Made by a program: the position numbers and the translations under genes. From assembly GCA_002327585.1 (NCBI GenBank), contig DCWL01000006.1, positions 28,302-92,301 of the forward strand: DNA of 64,000 bases. Reading direction: 5' to 3'. This document shows positions 33,556-44,162 of the stretch, one piece after another. Origin of the DNA: Candidatus Phycocordibacter aenigmaticus. GTDB taxonomy: Bacteria > Patescibacteriota > Minisyncoccia > Phycocordibacterales > UBA2163. The notes under the pieces are model-generated. The model worked only from the letters and a program-made list of their open reading frames with translations. It searched no databases and was not told where the DNA came from. The stretch's first letter is position 1; each line of letters starts with the position of its first letter.

Positions 33556-33966
33556 TCATCCTCTTTTCCTTATTCTTCCATAATCTCTTACTTCAAAAGA
33601 GATTACGTCATTGTCGCGCCTAGATACTCGGACTCTCTCCGTGTATGACTTTGGCGCTTTTCCTTTTCTTTTGATTGTAATAATTACAGAATACTCAACT
33701 CTACGAGTTGTGCTCCCTGGAAAAACAAAAGTATGATAATCCCCCGGGCCTAAATTTGACTTTTTGCTTACACTGGAGTTGATGTCCACATAAGCATCTT
33801 CCATATTGTTGCTCACAGTAACTTCTGTGTATGGATAAATAAAAGACCTTACGGGCCAGGAATAACTTACTGTGCTTGTCTTTCCTGTATTATATACACA
33901 CCCCCCACTCATCCCGAACACAACTACTAAAAGTATTGACAAAGCCAAAAATTTAACTTTCATCAC
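33556..33966 (-). CDS. orphan putative lipoprotein (SD-led cassette)
   Basis: Signal peptide with SGG-C lipobox-like site; TTGACA-16-TATAAT; AAAGGAGG SD. Confidence 0.7.
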   Translation of the reverse strand: MMKVKFLALSILLVVVFGMSGGCVYNTGKTSTVSYSWPVRSFIYPYTEVTVSNNMEDAYVDINSSVSKKSNLGPGDYHTFVFPGSTTRRVEYSVIITIKRKGKAPKSYTERVRVSRRDNDVISFEVRDYGRIRKRG

Positions 33967-34153
33967 TTCCTCCTTTAAAGAAAAATAGATTATAAATATA
34001 AATAAGATTTCAAGTCTGTATTCATTATATCATATCTACCAATTTTGTCAATATATACCGTATTATTGACTTCTTGACCGAATCAGCATATTCTAATTAT
34101 GGAGTGCTCTTTTAAAATTTTCAGAATGTTTTATAAAAAAGGAGGCAAATGTT

Positions 34154-34474
34154 ATGTTCAAAAAAATCCTATTTATAGTAATACTGACAGTATTTATAGC
34201 TGGTTTTACAAGTATGCAGCAGAAAGCATCTGCGGACCCAAAAGATAATTTAGCAAAATCGTCAGTTGGCATAGTCGCTGGTTGGACGGAAACGGCAATT
34301 TACCCTATGCAACAAGCAGCAAAACCTGGATGGGCCGGCAAAGTGTTGTTTCCGGTTAATGTTGGTGTTGGAGCGGCAAAAGCGGCCGTACGTACAGGTA
34401 TAGGTGCTATTGATTTAGTAACATTTTTCAAAGAGAAGAACATTGTGGACAGCTGGCCGGGAGAAGATTTATAG
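34154..34474 (+). CDS. secreted/membrane protein resembling TIGR04073 family
   Basis: Signal peptide, GWTE motif, G..K...R...G..DLVTF; TTGACT-17-TATTCT promoter, boxA-like, AAAGGAGG SD. Confidence 0.7.
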   Translation: MFKKILFIVILTVFIAGFTSMQQKASADPKDNLAKSSVGIVAGWTETAIYPMQQAAKPGWAGKVLFPVNVGVGAAKAAVRTGIGAIDLVTFFKEKNIVDSWPGEDL

Positions 34475-34610
34475 TAAAAATTGTTTTAAAACAATCAGTC
34501 TGAGCACTCATAGGCCTAATCTTTATGGATTGGGCTTTTTTTATATTTTAAAAAAATGATATTATTTAAATTAAGACAAAGAGATCTTTTTAAAATCTAG
34601 AAGGAGGGAG

Positions 34611-35027
34611 GTGGGAATAATGAAACGAGCTTTGTATTACATATTTATTATTTTCATTTTTACAGTATTTTCATACACAACTCAAGCTTCAAATAAAATA
34701 AATATTAATATTCAGAAACAAGAAAAGAGTTCTATTGAAAATAGAATTGAAGGTGTTGTGGATGTGTTGTTCGGTTGGACAGAAATAGTTACAACTCCAG
34801 CAAAGGGGGCAAAAAAATATGGTTTATTTGGTTTTTTCGGTGGAGTTGTAATCTCTCCACTTAAAATGACAATAAAAATAGTAGATGGTTTTGGTAAAAT
34901 CGCCAGTGGCAGTAATAGAAAAGAGAAGAGTATTGAGAAGATTCAAATTGATATTGAGAAGGAGTTGGAAGAGTTTCTCAAAGAAGATGAGGATTTAGTT
35001 GAAAATAAAATACTTTCTTTAGAGTAA
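34611..35027 (+). CDS. second GWTE-motif paralog (TIGR04073-like)
   Basis: Signal peptide, GVVDVLFGWTEIVTTP, Gly-rich segment; AAGGAGGGAGG SD; terminator 35046-35073. Confidence 0.65.
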   Translation: MGIMKRALYYIFIIFIFTVFSYTTQASNKININIQKQEKSSIENRIEGVVDVLFGWTEIVTTPAKGAKKYGLFGFFGGVVISPLKMTIKIVDGFGKIASGSNRKEKSIEKIQIDIEKELEEFLKEDEDLVENKILSLE

Positions 35028-36834: not shown

Positions 36835-36871
36835 AAGATTTGCCTCCGCAAGCTTCGCTTGCTATAGCGAG

Positions 36872-37029
36872 ACAAGTCCAGATCATGAATCTCTAAGCAA
36901 TGCTTTTAATAGTGATACTAAAAGTGAGCACCTCATTTGAGGATAGCTCGAGCGAACCTAACCAAAGTCAGAACCAAAACGTCCTTAACAAGGGCATCGA
37001 TTTGCTTAGAGATTCATGCTCTTGATTGT
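36872..37029 (-). ncRNA. candidate structured sRNA (possibly 6S-like)
   Basis: Perfect 17-bp terminal stem 36884-36900/37002-37018 extendable to ~28 bp, internal hairpins, TTGACA-17-TACATT promoter at 37062-37034. Confidence 0.55.
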
Positions 37030-37055
37030 ATGTAATGTAGCATAAAAAATAGCTT

Positions 37056-38081
37056 ATGTCAAGTCAAAAAAAGAAGCCGTCCCTTTCTGAAAACAACTCC
37101 AAACCTTCTCTGGACAATACCTTACGTCCGAAGAGCTGGGATGAGTATGTCGGGCAGGTGAATATAAAAAAGAATTTGAGAATTCTCTTAACCGCGGCTA
37201 AAGAGCGTAGTCATCCACCGGAACATATTTTGTTTTACGGTCCGCCAGGGCTTGGAAAGACAACACTCGCTCATTTGATTTCAAAAGAACTCGGGGTGCA
37301 AGTGCGTGTAACCTCTGGTCCTGCAATTGAAAAGATTGGAGATCTGGCTGCGGTTTTGACAAACCTTGGTGATGGAGACATTTTATTCATTGATGAAGTT
37401 CATCGCCTTAATAAAACAATTGAAGAAGTTCTCTACCCTGCAATGGAGTCCGGAGCAATAGATATAATAATAGGTAAAGGTCCATCTGCGCGAACAATCC
37501 AGCTTGAGCTTTCTGCCTTTACATTAATTGCTGCAACCACGCGTATTGCGCTTCTCTCCGCTCCACTCCGCTCCCGATTCTCTGGTGGAATATTTCGTCT
37601 GAATTTCTACAGTCAGGACGAGATAGAGGATATTCTCAACCGCTCTTCTAAAATTTTAGGAGTTGAAGTTGGTGATGTGGCAATTTCCGAGATTTCAAAA
37701 CGCAGCCGTTTCACACCAAGAGTCGCTAATTATCTTCTGAAGCGCTGCCGAGACTTTGCGCAAGTAAACAGAAAAACTCTCTCAAAAGAACAAGTTGGTA
37801 AGGCTCTTTCACTTTTGGAGATTGATGAGTTAGGACTGAATTCAGTAGACAGAAAAATTCTTGAAATTATAATAACCAAATTTAGCGGAGGACCTGTCGG
37901 GTTAAACACTCTTTCGGCCGCCATTTCAGAAGAGCAGGCGACTATTGAGGAGGTGCATGAACCCTACCTTATACAGCTCGGGCTTCTACAGAGAACTCCA
38001 CGCGGACGCATTGCGACAGAGCATGCATACAAACATTTAGGATATAAAGTTCCAAAAAATATGCAGGAAAAATTACTATAA
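37056..38081 (+). CDS. ruvB: Holliday junction branch migration helicase RuvB
   Basis: LRP, GPPGLGKTTLA, FIDEVHRL, GATT-like AATTR, EPYL, RTPRGR. Confidence 0.97.
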   Translation: MSSQKKKPSLSENNSKPSLDNTLRPKSWDEYVGQVNIKKNLRILLTAAKERSHPPEHILFYGPPGLGKTTLAHLISKELGVQVRVTSGPAIEKIGDLAAVLTNLGDGDILFIDEVHRLNKTIEEVLYPAMESGAIDIIIGKGPSARTIQLELSAFTLIAATTRIALLSAPLRSRFSGGIFRLNFYSQDEIEDILNRSSKILGVEVGDVAISEISKRSRFTPRVANYLLKRCRDFAQVNRKTLSKEQVGKALSLLEIDELGLNSVDRKILEIIITKFSGGPVGLNTLSAAISEEQATIEEVHEPYLIQLGLLQRTPRGRIATEHAYKHLGYKVPKNMQEKLL

Positions 38082-38084
38082 ACT

Positions 38085-38612
38085 ATGTCTGGTCACAGCA
38101 AATGGTCAAAAATAAAACACAAGAAAGCACTTACTGATGCCAAAAAAAGCAAAGTATTTTCAAAACTTGTTCGGTTTATTGAAGTTGAGTCAAAAAAAGC
38201 GGGGGGTGATGTAGAATCCCCTGGAGTGCGCCTTGCGATTGAGAGGGCGCGCGCCGCAAATATGCCCTCGAACAACATCAATCGCGCGATAGCCAAAGGA
38301 AAAGAGGGAGGGGGTGCGAATATGGAGAATGTTCTTTACGAGGCCTACGGGCCAGGAGGTTCTGCAATAATAATTGAAGGCCTCACCGACAGTAGAAACA
38401 GAACTGCCGCGGAGATAAAATATTTACTTAACAAGCATGGAACCCAACTCGCTGCGCAAGGCGCGGCAGCTTGGGCATTTGAAAAAGTTGACGAGAAGTG
38501 GAGTCCCAAAACAGTCGTTTCAATTTCAGAGGAAGATGGTGAAAAACTTATGAAACTCATCGAAGAACTTGAAGACCACGACGACGTGCAGGGGGTGTAT
38601 ATAAACGTGTAG
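38085..38612 (+). CDS. yebC: YebC/PmpR family protein (short form)
   Basis: MSGHSKWSKIKHKK, YEAYGPGG, TDSRNRT, LEDHDDVQ. Confidence 0.93.
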   Translation: MSGHSKWSKIKHKKALTDAKKSKVFSKLVRFIEVESKKAGGDVESPGVRLAIERARAANMPSNNINRAIAKGKEGGGANMENVLYEAYGPGGSAIIIEGLTDSRNRTAAEIKYLLNKHGTQLAAQGAAAWAFEKVDEKWSPKTVVSISEEDGEKLMKLIEELEDHDDVQGVYINV

Positions 38613-38671
38613 ATAAGTTATAAGATTAACTCTAACTTTATATTCCTCAGCACAATATTTATTACCATTAA

Positions 38672-39118
38672 AATAAAAAAGATCACCATATTTTTGGTGA
38701 TCCTATCTCTTTTACTCTTATTATAATGACACTCCCAAGAGGAAACAAAACTTCTTGCTCCTCTTGGGGCGTCAGACAGTTGCAACTCGACCCTAGTTGC
38801 CGGCGTGCCCCATTACGTACAAGCTCCGATGTGTAAGACTGTCACTACACTGGCTTGATTCCGACGTGCCTCGGTACAGCAATTCCTTGTTTATGCTCCA
38901 TGGATGAGTGACCGAGAAATCATCCCATGCGCCCAAGTCAACCTGACTTGGAATTCGACACATTACTATGTCTCCTATTGTATAGTTATGTATTCCTATA
39001 CAACCCTAATGAGTGCTCACCCATAACCGGAGGGCTTCTTTCTGTGGTTTCCTGCAAGTATCCCATCAGCGACACTTGCAACTAATATAATATTAGCCAC
39101 TTAAAGTACTAACTGTGG
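38672..39118 (-). ncRNA. candidate large structured RNA (~440 nt), may include a 56-aa ORF at 38793-38963
   Basis: TTGACA-17-TAAACT promoter, series of hairpins with G-U pairs favouring minus strand, terminator GATCACCA/TGGTGATC plus T-run. Confidence 0.55.
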
Positions 39119-39185
39119 ATAGTTTAGCATGCTTTATTTTATTTGTCAAGGAGTAAAACCTCTTCCTAAAATGTACTATGTACAT

Positions 39186-39665
39186 ATGACTATATTATCT
39201 ATAGATCCAGGATATGAGAGAGTTGGAATTTCTATATTAGAAAAAACTAATAATAAAGAAAAGCTTATTTATTCTGATTGTTTTAAAACATCTGCAGAGC
39301 TTCCTTTTTTGGAACGACTTAAAAAGATAAGTGACGAAGTTGAAAGGATTATAAAAAAATATAAGCCAGGTGTGCTTGCGATTGAAAAACTTTTTTTCAA
39401 TACGAATCAAAAAACCGCGACGCGGGTTAGCGAGGTTCGTGGGGCACTTTTATACATTGCAAAAGTAAACAAAATGGATGTATATGAATACACGCCACTT
39501 CAGATAAAAGTCGCGACAACCGGAAACGGCCACGGTGATAAAAAACAAGTCATCGCAATGGTTAAAAATCTTATTCCAATAGATAAAGAGATTGAGCACG
39601 ACGACGAATTTGATGCAATTGCTGTAGGACTTACCTGTATTGCCTCCGAAAGAAATCTTATTTAA
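39186..39665 (+). CDS. ruvC: crossover junction endodeoxyribonuclease RuvC
   Basis: ILSIDPG, AIEKLFF, EYTPLQIK, DDEFDAIAVGL; start trimmed. Confidence 0.95.
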   Translation: MTILSIDPGYERVGISILEKTNNKEKLIYSDCFKTSAELPFLERLKKISDEVERIIKKYKPGVLAIEKLFFNTNQKTATRVSEVRGALLYIAKVNKMDVYEYTPLQIKVATTGNGHGDKKQVIAMVKNLIPIDKEIEHDDEFDAIAVGLTCIASERNLI

Positions 39666-40878
39666 CTTTTACCTTCAAAAATCTTTTCTTTCCTATTTTT
39701 ATCGTCGTATTTTTTTCTATTTTAAAATTAATGTCATTTATTATACTTCCTCCAATTTCTGTCACGGCACCTGCTTCCACCAATCTCCTTAAATCTGTTT
39801 TTGATTCAACAAGTTTTGAAACCGCATCGTAAAGTGGTATACCTTTTTCGACTTCTATTTCTTCAGCGTCTTCAGATACTCCTCCGTCGCTGAAAGTTTT
39901 TATAAAATTATTTTTTGCTTTCTCTGCAGAATCTTTTCCGTGATATATAGAAACAATCTCTCCCGCTAGTTTCATTTTAATATCTTTTGGTTTTATATTA
40001 CTTTCTAAGTCTGATTTTACTTTTTCAATTTCGTCAATAGAAATATCTGTAGCAAGTTCAAATCCAGGAGTTATCGTCTCGTCAGTCCAGCTCATAACTT
40101 TCCCAAACATTTCATTCTCACTATCGGTAAATTTAATCATATTACCTTCAGTTTTACCCATTTTTGCTCCTACTGTATCTTCAATAAGTTTTGTTGTCAT
40201 TACAAATTTCTCTTTTCTAAGCATTTGTTTCATAAGTGTTCTTCCGATAAGCATATTGAATGTCTGGTCATTCCCCCCTATCTCTCCATCAACCTCCATC
40301 GCAACAGAGTCATACCCCTGCATCAGGGGATACAGAAATTCGTGGATATAAATTGGCTTATCTGCTTTTCTTCTCTCCTCAAACATATCACGCTTGAGCA
40401 TCTGTTCCACTGTCATGTTTGAGGCAAGATCAAGCACTTTTTCAAAACACATTTTAGAGAGCCACTCAGAATTATATTTTATCTCAGCATAATTTTCCCC
40501 ACTGAAATTTAAGAATACGGATGCCTGTTCCTTATAAAGTTTGGCATTATCCAAAACTTCTTCTCTTGTAAGTTTTTTTCTAACTGAAGTTTTGTCCGTA
40601 GGGTCCCCTATTACTCCTGTAAAATCACCAATCAAAAGAATCGCTTTATGCCCAAGTCCTTGAAACTCTCCAAGCTTTTTAAGTACGGTTGCATGGCCAA
40701 GATGAAGTGAGGGTCCAGTGGGGTCAATACCAAGATACATAGTTAGTTTCTCCCCTTTCTTTAATTTCTCCTCCAAAAATTGCTTGTTTGGATATATATT
40801 CTCGACACCTCTTGAGAGAAAATTTTCTATTTTCTCAATATTAGAAACTTCTATACCCCTTTTTGAATTCCAAAACAT
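39658..40878 (-). CDS. tyrS: tyrosine--tRNA ligase
   Basis: YLGIDPTGPSLHLGH, YPLMQGYD, GGNDQTFN, KMGKT. Confidence 0.96.
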   Translation of the reverse strand: MFWNSKRGIEVSNIEKIENFLSRGVENIYPNKQFLEEKLKKGEKLTMYLGIDPTGPSLHLGHATVLKKLGEFQGLGHKAILLIGDFTGVIGDPTDKTSVRKKLTREEVLDNAKLYKEQASVFLNFSGENYAEIKYNSEWLSKMCFEKVLDLASNMTVEQMLKRDMFEERRKADKPIYIHEFLYPLMQGYDSVAMEVDGEIGGNDQTFNMLIGRTLMKQMLRKEKFVMTTKLIEDTVGAKMGKTEGNMIKFTDSENEMFGKVMSWTDETITPGFELATDISIDEIEKVKSDLESNIKPKDIKMKLAGEIVSIYHGKDSAEKAKNNFIKTFSDGGVSEDAEEIEVEKGIPLYDAVSKLVESKTDLRRLVEAGAVTEIGGSIINDINFKIEKNTTIKIGKKRFLKVKVK

Positions 40879-40918
40879 AATGTTAATAATAACACAGCTA
40901 TTATGTTAATATAAGAAA

Positions 40919-43804: not shown

Positions 43805-43942
43805 TTATTCTGGATATACATCTCGTTCTTTTACAAATTCTTTACAGGTACAACACCAATTGTTGTCCCGTATTCTCTCTCCACAGCTTATACAGCGTTT
43901 AACAACTTTGGCAAGTTTAATTACCTTCTTTTTTTCATCCAT
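43805..43942 (-). CDS. 45-aa zinc-finger-like protein (not in ORF track)
   Basis: MDEKKKVIKLAKVVKRCISCGERIRDNNWCCTCKEFVKERDVYPE; G-rich SD. Confidence 0.6.
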   Translation of the reverse strand: MDEKKKVIKLAKVVKRCISCGERIRDNNWCCTCKEFVKERDVYPE

Positions 43943-43997
43943 AGCCTGTCCCCCCACAAACACCTTTCTTTTTAATACAAAAATTAAGTAATGTTTT

Positions 43998-44162
43998 TTA
44001 CAGCTCTATGTGTGCTGTTTTTTCTTTACATTTTATACACCATAAATGCTTAATATGACCTTTTCCTCTGTTTCTATTTTTAAGCCTTTGGATACTTTGC
44101 ACTTCTCCACATTTTGTACACTCAAGGTCTTTTTTTATAAGATTATGTATACCTCTTGACAT
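43998..44162 (-). CDS. 54-aa L33-like zinc-ribbon protein (not in ORF track)
   Basis: MSRGIHNLIKKDLECTKCGEVQSIQRLKNRNRGKGHIKHLWCIKCKEKTAHIEL; GAGGAG SD; TTGACA-16-TATACT promoter. Confidence 0.8.
   Translation of the reverse strand: MSRGIHNLIKKDLECTKCGEVQSIQRLKNRNRGKGHIKHLWCIKCKEKTAHIEL

Follow-up and report, generated by a model that had tools for sequence, protein, structure and literature searches.

Bacterial RNAs of several hundred nucleotides that have a multibranch predicted fold and so far no function include ROOL, GOLLD, OLE and raiA. In the available parts of the reports on them (PMC5737381, PMC12286853, PMC12968392) these RNAs have their own promoter and terminator and are visible in RNA data, they show covariation across many species and they are present in Rfam. 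The element described here, which lies between the yebC and ruvC genes, shares their size, their predicted fold, their transcription signals and their visibility in RNA data, and it too is without a function so far. Unlike them it is known from one copy, has no Rfam match and has no supported pseudoknot. Ms1 and 6S RNA are stand-alone RNAs closed by pairing of the 5' part with the 3' part, and Ms1 is about 300 nt long and binds protein (PMC9130861, in the part of the source available). The element is likewise predicted to be closed by 5'-3' pairing; it differs in lacking the rod of about 180 nt with a central bubble, in having no match to the 6S family (RF00013, which finds nothing in the whole genome) and in not being conserved in its genus.

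Comparable transcription units are also found within the genus itself. These are Shine-Dalgarno-led cassettes (in the relatives G004 and G007 and at G000:C13:1611, G000 being the studied genome), which resemble the element in the type and position of the promoter, in an AGGAG-type site, in a 3' hairpin followed by a terminator and, in some cases, in strong folding. They differ from the element in their short AT-rich leads, in their normal codon use and in their products, proteins of 118-162 residues with an N-terminal hydrophobic segment. Genomes under 0.5 Mb are not known to retain much more than housekeeping RNAs. If an expressed, folded RNA of 440 nt does replace a secreted-protein gene behind the same promoter, accessory cargo in these bacteria can be RNA; the single-copy orphan status of the element limits such claims until homologs appear.

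The window is the whole stretch of 64,000 nucleotides analysed. It comes from a 476-kb genome in 16 contigs, rated 99.65% complete; judging by its size and the arrangement of its genes, it is probably that of a CPR (Patescibacteria) bacterium. G001, G002, G004, G005 and G007 are relatives of the same genus. The features of the locus are collected in Table 1; ruvB lies upstream of the two flanking genes.

Table 1. Position of the element, its predicted parts and its neighbours in the window.
Feature	Position	Strand	Remarks
yebC	38085..38612	+	left flank of the gap, convergent to the element
ruvC	39183..39665	+	right flank of the gap, divergent from the element
sigma-70-type promoter, TTGACA-17-TAAACT, TG before the -10	39121..39149	-	start predicted near 39114-39116
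predicted transcript, ~440 nt	38672..39114	-	38759-39100 lies under identical RNA-library contigs; ends and strand inferred
5' three-way-junction domain, two hairpins on a short helix	39038..39106	-	predicted; z -2.97 for 38974-39116
irregular long-range helix, 39035-39005 with 38817-38790	38790..39035	-	predicted; encloses the central hairpins; pair probabilities 0.91-0.97
central multibranch, five to six hairpins	38820..39004	-	39004-38977, 38972-38957, 38951-38933, 38929-38899, weaker ones to 38820
AGGAG (38976-38972) and 56-codon ORF (38963-38793)	38793..38976	-	AGGAG 8 nt upstream; probably not translated
CTCGGT (38916-38911) / ACCGAG (38875-38870)	38870..38916	-	pseudoknot or alternative nested helix; at chance level
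long 3' hairpin, 21 pairs	38727..38774	-	three of the four RNA contigs end at its apex, 38759-38761
intrinsic-terminator-like hairpin with T run	38670..38704 (hairpin 38704-38679)	-	scores on the plus strand too, after yebC
conserved RNA, about 170 nt	36865-37032	-	full-consensus promoter 37062-37034; divergent from ruvB; 2 kb from the element

The preliminary description of this DNA had placed a minus-strand promoter and a terminator in the gap. Both were found, the promoter with a TG that extends its -10 box. The genome has 16 full-consensus promoter sites, this one included; promoter-like sites over the whole region are at chance level (7 against 6.8 expected). The element had also been called GC-rich, which holds against the flanking spacer (46% G+C versus 22-30%) and fails against the neighbouring yebC gene (46%). 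A direct repeat of marginal significance (38775-38787 and 39071-39083, 12 of 13 bases) flanks the core of the element, and there is a weaker third copy at 38728-38738. The YebC protein here has 175 residues, as in relatives, fewer than the usual form.

The sequence of the element is present in public RNA data. Four marine metatranscriptome runs, from three samples of one study, contain 23-30% of the sampled words of 38400-39400. Each of the four yielded one mismatch-free contig (38761-39058, 38806-39100, 38761-39047 and 38759-39011), with word depths in the four runs of 34, 10, 14 and 220; the runs were picked with a query that contained the element, and the contigs carry no strand, end or level information. 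In the flanks, within 36900-40900 (4001 bases), the sole other near-identical contig was 147 nt of tyrS at a depth of 2.8 in one run. Carry-over of DNA would be expected to cover the neighbours too, and we therefore read the element as a discrete transcript in marine RNA libraries. The 3' 87 nt (38672-38758) are without RNA contigs, as is the 6S-shaped conserved RNA over 36900-37033, and neither gap need mean silence. The contig stops at 38759-38761, the apex of the long hairpin, would fit loop priming of a minus-strand RNA or a cut at that place.

The genes yebC and ruvC had been said to be usually adjacent and to be split here, and wider sampling agrees. We examined 98 ruvC loci, some of them redundant; 17 were without a located upstream gene and 81 had yebC or ruvB upstream. 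The gap is 150 nt or less in 66 of the 81, and the other 15 have inserts unlike the element. Within the genus, G002 and G005 have a gap of 3 nt, G001 one of about 230 nt and G004 one of 594 nt. In G004 and G007 the same divergent promoter stands at the same distance from the ruvC start as in the studied genome. Behind it lies a gene of 118 or 133 codons, led by AAAGGAG or AAAGGGG, with an N-terminal hydrophobic segment and, at its 3' end, a hairpin and then a terminator. The preliminary description overlooked this variable cargo slot, whose promoter the congeners share for a secreted-protein gene. In these two loci (L017 in G004, L014 in G007) the secreted-type ORFs differ, the hairpin and terminator are 80% alike over 75 nt, and the hairpin shows paired changes.

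The cargo of the slot is plainly swappable, and the sequence of events cannot be fixed. The nearest relative, both by ruvB (84/85 support) and by tmRNA, is G002, in which the site is empty. The best reading is that the element was recently acquired. In trees of yebC and of ruvC the branch of the studied genome is long. Compared with G002, its tmRNA is 98% identical and its RuvB 87%, YebC and RuvC only 71-74%; replacement or fast evolution of the yebC-ruvC block is possible. A TACTAT hexamer 6 nt 5' of the ruvC ATG (within 39171-39185 here) is common to the studied genome, G004 and G007, which suggests that the ruvC message may be leaderless once an insert parts ruvC from ruvB-yebC.

A search of CPR genomes for homologs, proposed in the preliminary description, covered several hundred genomes and found none. 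BLAST gave three matches in 100 relatives, all within the promoter part, and matches of 21-32 nt in 4 of 400 genomes of the order (E 0.002-0.009), none of which extends; at E 0.003 there were none in 400 genomes of the class or 400 of the phylum, and as these samples overlap the counts are not additive. Two single-sequence covariance models, in which the element was aligned with its own copy, each matched 0 of 149 relatives, and one of them also 0 of 149 order genomes. The phage and plasmid collections had no match to the element. In viral contigs, eight pattern scans yielded 0, 77, 70, 12, 8, 19, 5 and 24 hits, and in GTDB contigs one such scan yielded 2; none extended. The best viral-contig hit (L333, E 0.12) runs antisense to a long open frame and was rejected. 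A metagenome collection was searched by way of RuvC, and none of its 80 loci has a homolog of the element at the slot. The tmRNA was detected in 5 of 5 congeners (73-98% identity), and 55 of 60 relatives have the conserved RNA that lies upstream of ruvB, which was detected with a model of 13 sequences that is more sensitive than the single-sequence models of the element. Conserved RNAs would thus have been seen in the relatives. Since no homolog was found, no covariation analysis of the element is possible.

The element belongs to none of the RNA families searched. An Rfam scan, likewise proposed at the outset, was run against Rfam 15 up to E 10 and found no family at its gathering score; the best match had an E of 0.48 and 19.5 bits against a cut-off of 80. 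There was no covariance-model match in the element to ROOL, GOLLD, OLE, raiA or other Rfam motifs. The element has no match to tmRNA (RF00023, ARAGORN), no tRNA-like ends with a tag ORF, and neither a match to RNase P RNA (RF00010) nor a P4 signature, as had been claimed for both, and the copies of the genome lie on other contigs (tmRNA at G000:C13:19569-19943, 106 bits; RNase P RNA at G000:C15:5432-5820, 103.6 bits). The small SRP RNA model (RF00169) finds nothing in the genome. The genome has no full Ffh protein; with the SRP54 model the sole match is to a P-loop, over 41 positions of a 941-aa frame. As to an antisense target, the genome offers no perfect match longer than 17 nt, and that one falls in the 3' hairpin. 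No gene for a partner protein neighbours the element. In the literature searched, with supplements and most subscription journals outside its scope, nothing was found on the RNA of the element or on 6S RNA in Patescibacteria.

Several further candidates were rejected. One was a CsrB-like GGA sponge, with 11 GGA counted against 7.4 expected (P 0.06). The four copies of ATGGG are no motif, as one 5-mer or another occurs four times in roughly every second shuffle. A hammerhead or HDV-like ribozyme is absent from Rfam matches, and by eye the core and stems misfit the consensus motifs. The AGGAG-ATG region is no more like a gene on C7 than chance would make it.

The element had been described as a hairpin-dense RNA. 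All of the stems named are present, and the region folds beyond chance, at -158.8 kcal/mol with a z of -5.38 on the minus strand and -4.64 on the plus strand. For the core without the 3' hairpin the values are -4.02 and -1.35. This difference supports the minus strand and agrees with the earlier argument from G-U pairs, which are confined to one strand; several stems are perfect over 8-10 bp. For scale, in the same genome the tmRNA has a z of -3.9 and the RNase P RNA one of -7.9. In 115 random genome windows (10 shuffles each) the mean was -0.7, against -4.2 for the core; 4 windows were lower, and 2 of these were still below -4 on repeat. It is the 5' domain (z -3.0), the 3' hairpin (z -5.4 to -5.8) and the long-range helix that account for the excess. 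Taken by itself, the ORF part has none (z +0.2).

A duplex as stable as the long-range one (-27.6 kcal/mol) occurs in 5 of 6000 windows of the genome, in 2 of 354 that match it in GC and in 42 of 3000 shuffles; these figures flatter it because the segment was chosen after folding. The first three central hairpins have pair probabilities of 0.84-0.99 and the rest 0.5-0.75. The fold of a single sequence is in itself no evidence of functional structure (PMC8250186, in the part available). The loop CTCGGT had been proposed to pair with the downstream ACCGAG as a pseudoknot. We find no support for this pairing. A 6-bp match of this kind arises in 7.7% of local shuffles, and in 89% when any loop anywhere is allowed; a nested fold with the same six pairs reaches -17.1 kcal/mol, better than the -10.6 of the hairpin pair that the pseudoknot needs.

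We hypothesise that the element is a non-coding RNA gene in its own right, about 440 nt long, restricted to one species and placed in a swappable slot, whose product would be a folded protein-binding RNA serving as decoy or scaffold; we put the probability of this at about one half. Transcription of the minus strand would start at about 39114 from the strong promoter. The 5' and 3' parts are predicted to pair and so to close off the multibranch core, and the 21-pair hairpin may protect the 3' end, allowing the RNA to accumulate. The RNA would then act through its shape by binding a protein. This role is reached by elimination: the element has no long antisense match, its ORF is not credible, it bears no signature of a ribozyme or a guide, and no partner gene lies next to it. 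The preliminary description had offered a novel ncRNA, a dual-function RNA or a structured mRNA. The novel ncRNA is the best reading of these, given the discrete unit in RNA libraries, the lack of an Rfam family and an ORF that looks non-coding; the structured mRNA stays alive, since a real mRNA of this genome folds strongly. The order of promoter, AGGAG, ORF, hairpin and terminator is that of the protein cargo in G004 and G007 and counts against the non-coding reading.

That layout is the starting point of a rather unlikely alternative, a structured mRNA or dual-function RNA of the accessory-gene class, with an orphan peptide of 56 residues, a stabilising hairpin and a long-range helix that would gate translation. 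The mRNAs of type I toxins fold back by 5'-3' pairing, and the element resembles them in having a long-range helix around a small ORF; it differs in that its peptide is not hydrophobic, its helix does not lie over the AGGAG and no antisense antitoxin unit was seen. The ORF led by AGGAG had been reported before and is present. An ORF of 56 codons with AGGAG or GGAGG is found in only 2.2% of shuffles, which favours an mRNA; without the AGGAG such a length is found in 29%, which does not. The promoter class, too, offers points for either reading. Thirteen of the 15 other full-consensus promoters head Shine-Dalgarno-led ORFs, as does the one at the same slot in G004 and G007. The remaining two precede the conserved RNA upstream of ruvB and a gene that we take, from its sequence alone, to be cold-shock-protein-like, and so the class serves RNA genes too. 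Against the 13 Shine-Dalgarno-led genes the ORF here is the shortest and its lead the longest and most GC-rich (157 nt and 39% GC versus 41-118 nt and 22-34% GC). Strong folding does occur in accessory mRNAs: a lysozyme-like mRNA of the same genome (G000:C13:1611-2099; L313:612-1097) has a z of -6.4 to -7.2 over its coding region, and values below -3 are found in 3 of 22 Shine-Dalgarno-led ORFs versus 2 of 122 others. The stop codon lies 19 nt before the 3' hairpin, compared with about 10 in the cargo of congeners, a further likeness. The ORF itself argues the other way. Its codon score is -0.36. When 362 real genes are cut into 55-codon segments, only 1.4% of the segments are as low; the average for stop-free shadow frames is -0.32, and the values for eight other small accessory ORFs run from -0.16 to +0.25. 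The peptide has no signal peptide or hydrophobic stretch, unlike other cargo of the slot. It was never called as a gene, has no homolog in protein searches and is absent from a collection of 15 billion proteins in which the neighbouring YebC is on 19 contigs, although codon, homolog and gene-call tests are weak for an orphan of 56 residues. Four protein hits to the ORF were rejected as summed weak matches to repeat proteins. Finally, the 16S tail (GGATTATTTCC) is without CCTCC, and long genes are hardly more often preceded by AGGAG than expected (7 versus 4 of 362). Loss of the anti-Shine-Dalgarno sequence is described for about half of Parcubacteria in the part of PMC9297842 available. The ORF is probably not translated.

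An element that does nothing is also unlikely in our view. It would be a remnant of foreign DNA or of a decayed accessory gene, transcribed from an inherited strong promoter, with hairpins that slow its decay. This would account for an element found in no relative, as against the tmRNA in all five congeners and the ruvB-upstream RNA in nearly all relatives, and it suits both the unrelated cargo at 15 of the 81 loci and the lack of excess folding in the ORF region. It accords poorly with the perfect 8-10 bp stems and the one-strand G-U pairs, with four RNA contigs from three samples identical to the genome, and with searches of Rfam, phages, plasmids and proteins that revealed no trace of a parent gene or mobile element. 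A stretch of 570 nt of junk in a 476-kb genome would be possible and less expected. In its size, its multibranch fold and a hairpin loop that is complementary to sequence further downstream, the element resembles omega RNAs. TIGR stem arrays occur in CPR bacteria (PMC12045711, in the part available), and the 12/13 direct repeat brackets the core. It is nevertheless very unlikely that the element, as an omega-like RNA, TIGR array, retron or DGR RNA, intron or self-cleaving RNA, is a ribozyme or the RNA component of a mobile or RNA-guided system that lost its protein or works apart from it. The genome has no match to HEARO or omega RNA (RF02033), none to group I introns (RF00028), with no interrupted host gene seen, and the element has no Rfam ribozyme at E up to 10. 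No reverse transcriptase family matches in the genome and no template-variable repeat pair was found, so that neither a retron nor a DGR RNA is indicated. The genome has no TnpB family match, and neither IscB, IsrB nor TnpB is adjacent to the element; in the search of the genome for IscB the controls were silent. There is no tandem box C-spacer-box D unit in the element and no Nop family protein in the genome, with boxes as defined in the available part of PMC12045711, a definition that divergent boxes or a divergent Tas protein would escape. We thus prefer the non-coding RNA gene in a swappable slot. Its extension to an unrecognised, lineage-specific class of accessory RNAs is improbable and is put forward as speculation; such RNAs would share the cargo slots of CPR episymbionts with secreted-protein genes and would meet the host as decoys that bind its RNA-binding or defence proteins.

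Small accessory genes of this genome have strong Shine-Dalgarno sites and full-consensus promoters despite the CCTCC-less 16S tail; this is seen genome-wide and in the window at 33556-35027 and 43805-44162. The second of these places, on the minus strand, holds two tandem ORFs of 54 and 52 codons with CxxC pairs behind a promoter, with no Pfam match. The lysozyme-like gene has its own full promoter, an AAGGAGG and an N-terminal hydrophobic segment, and gives weak SLT and Destabilase hits below the cut-off.

The conserved RNA divergent from ruvB is the better-supported RNA family of this region. Its model finds nothing in the element, and the conserved RNA itself has no match to RF00013 or to any other Rfam family. 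It is present order-wide. Two-sided changes are found at 23 of 44 predicted pairs among 13 sequences. A long stem closes the RNA, its centre is open, and a terminal stem and a 3' hairpin complete a layout that we take to be of the 6S type. By its shape this RNA is a candidate 6S RNA of the order, and it may fill the apparent 6S gap there.
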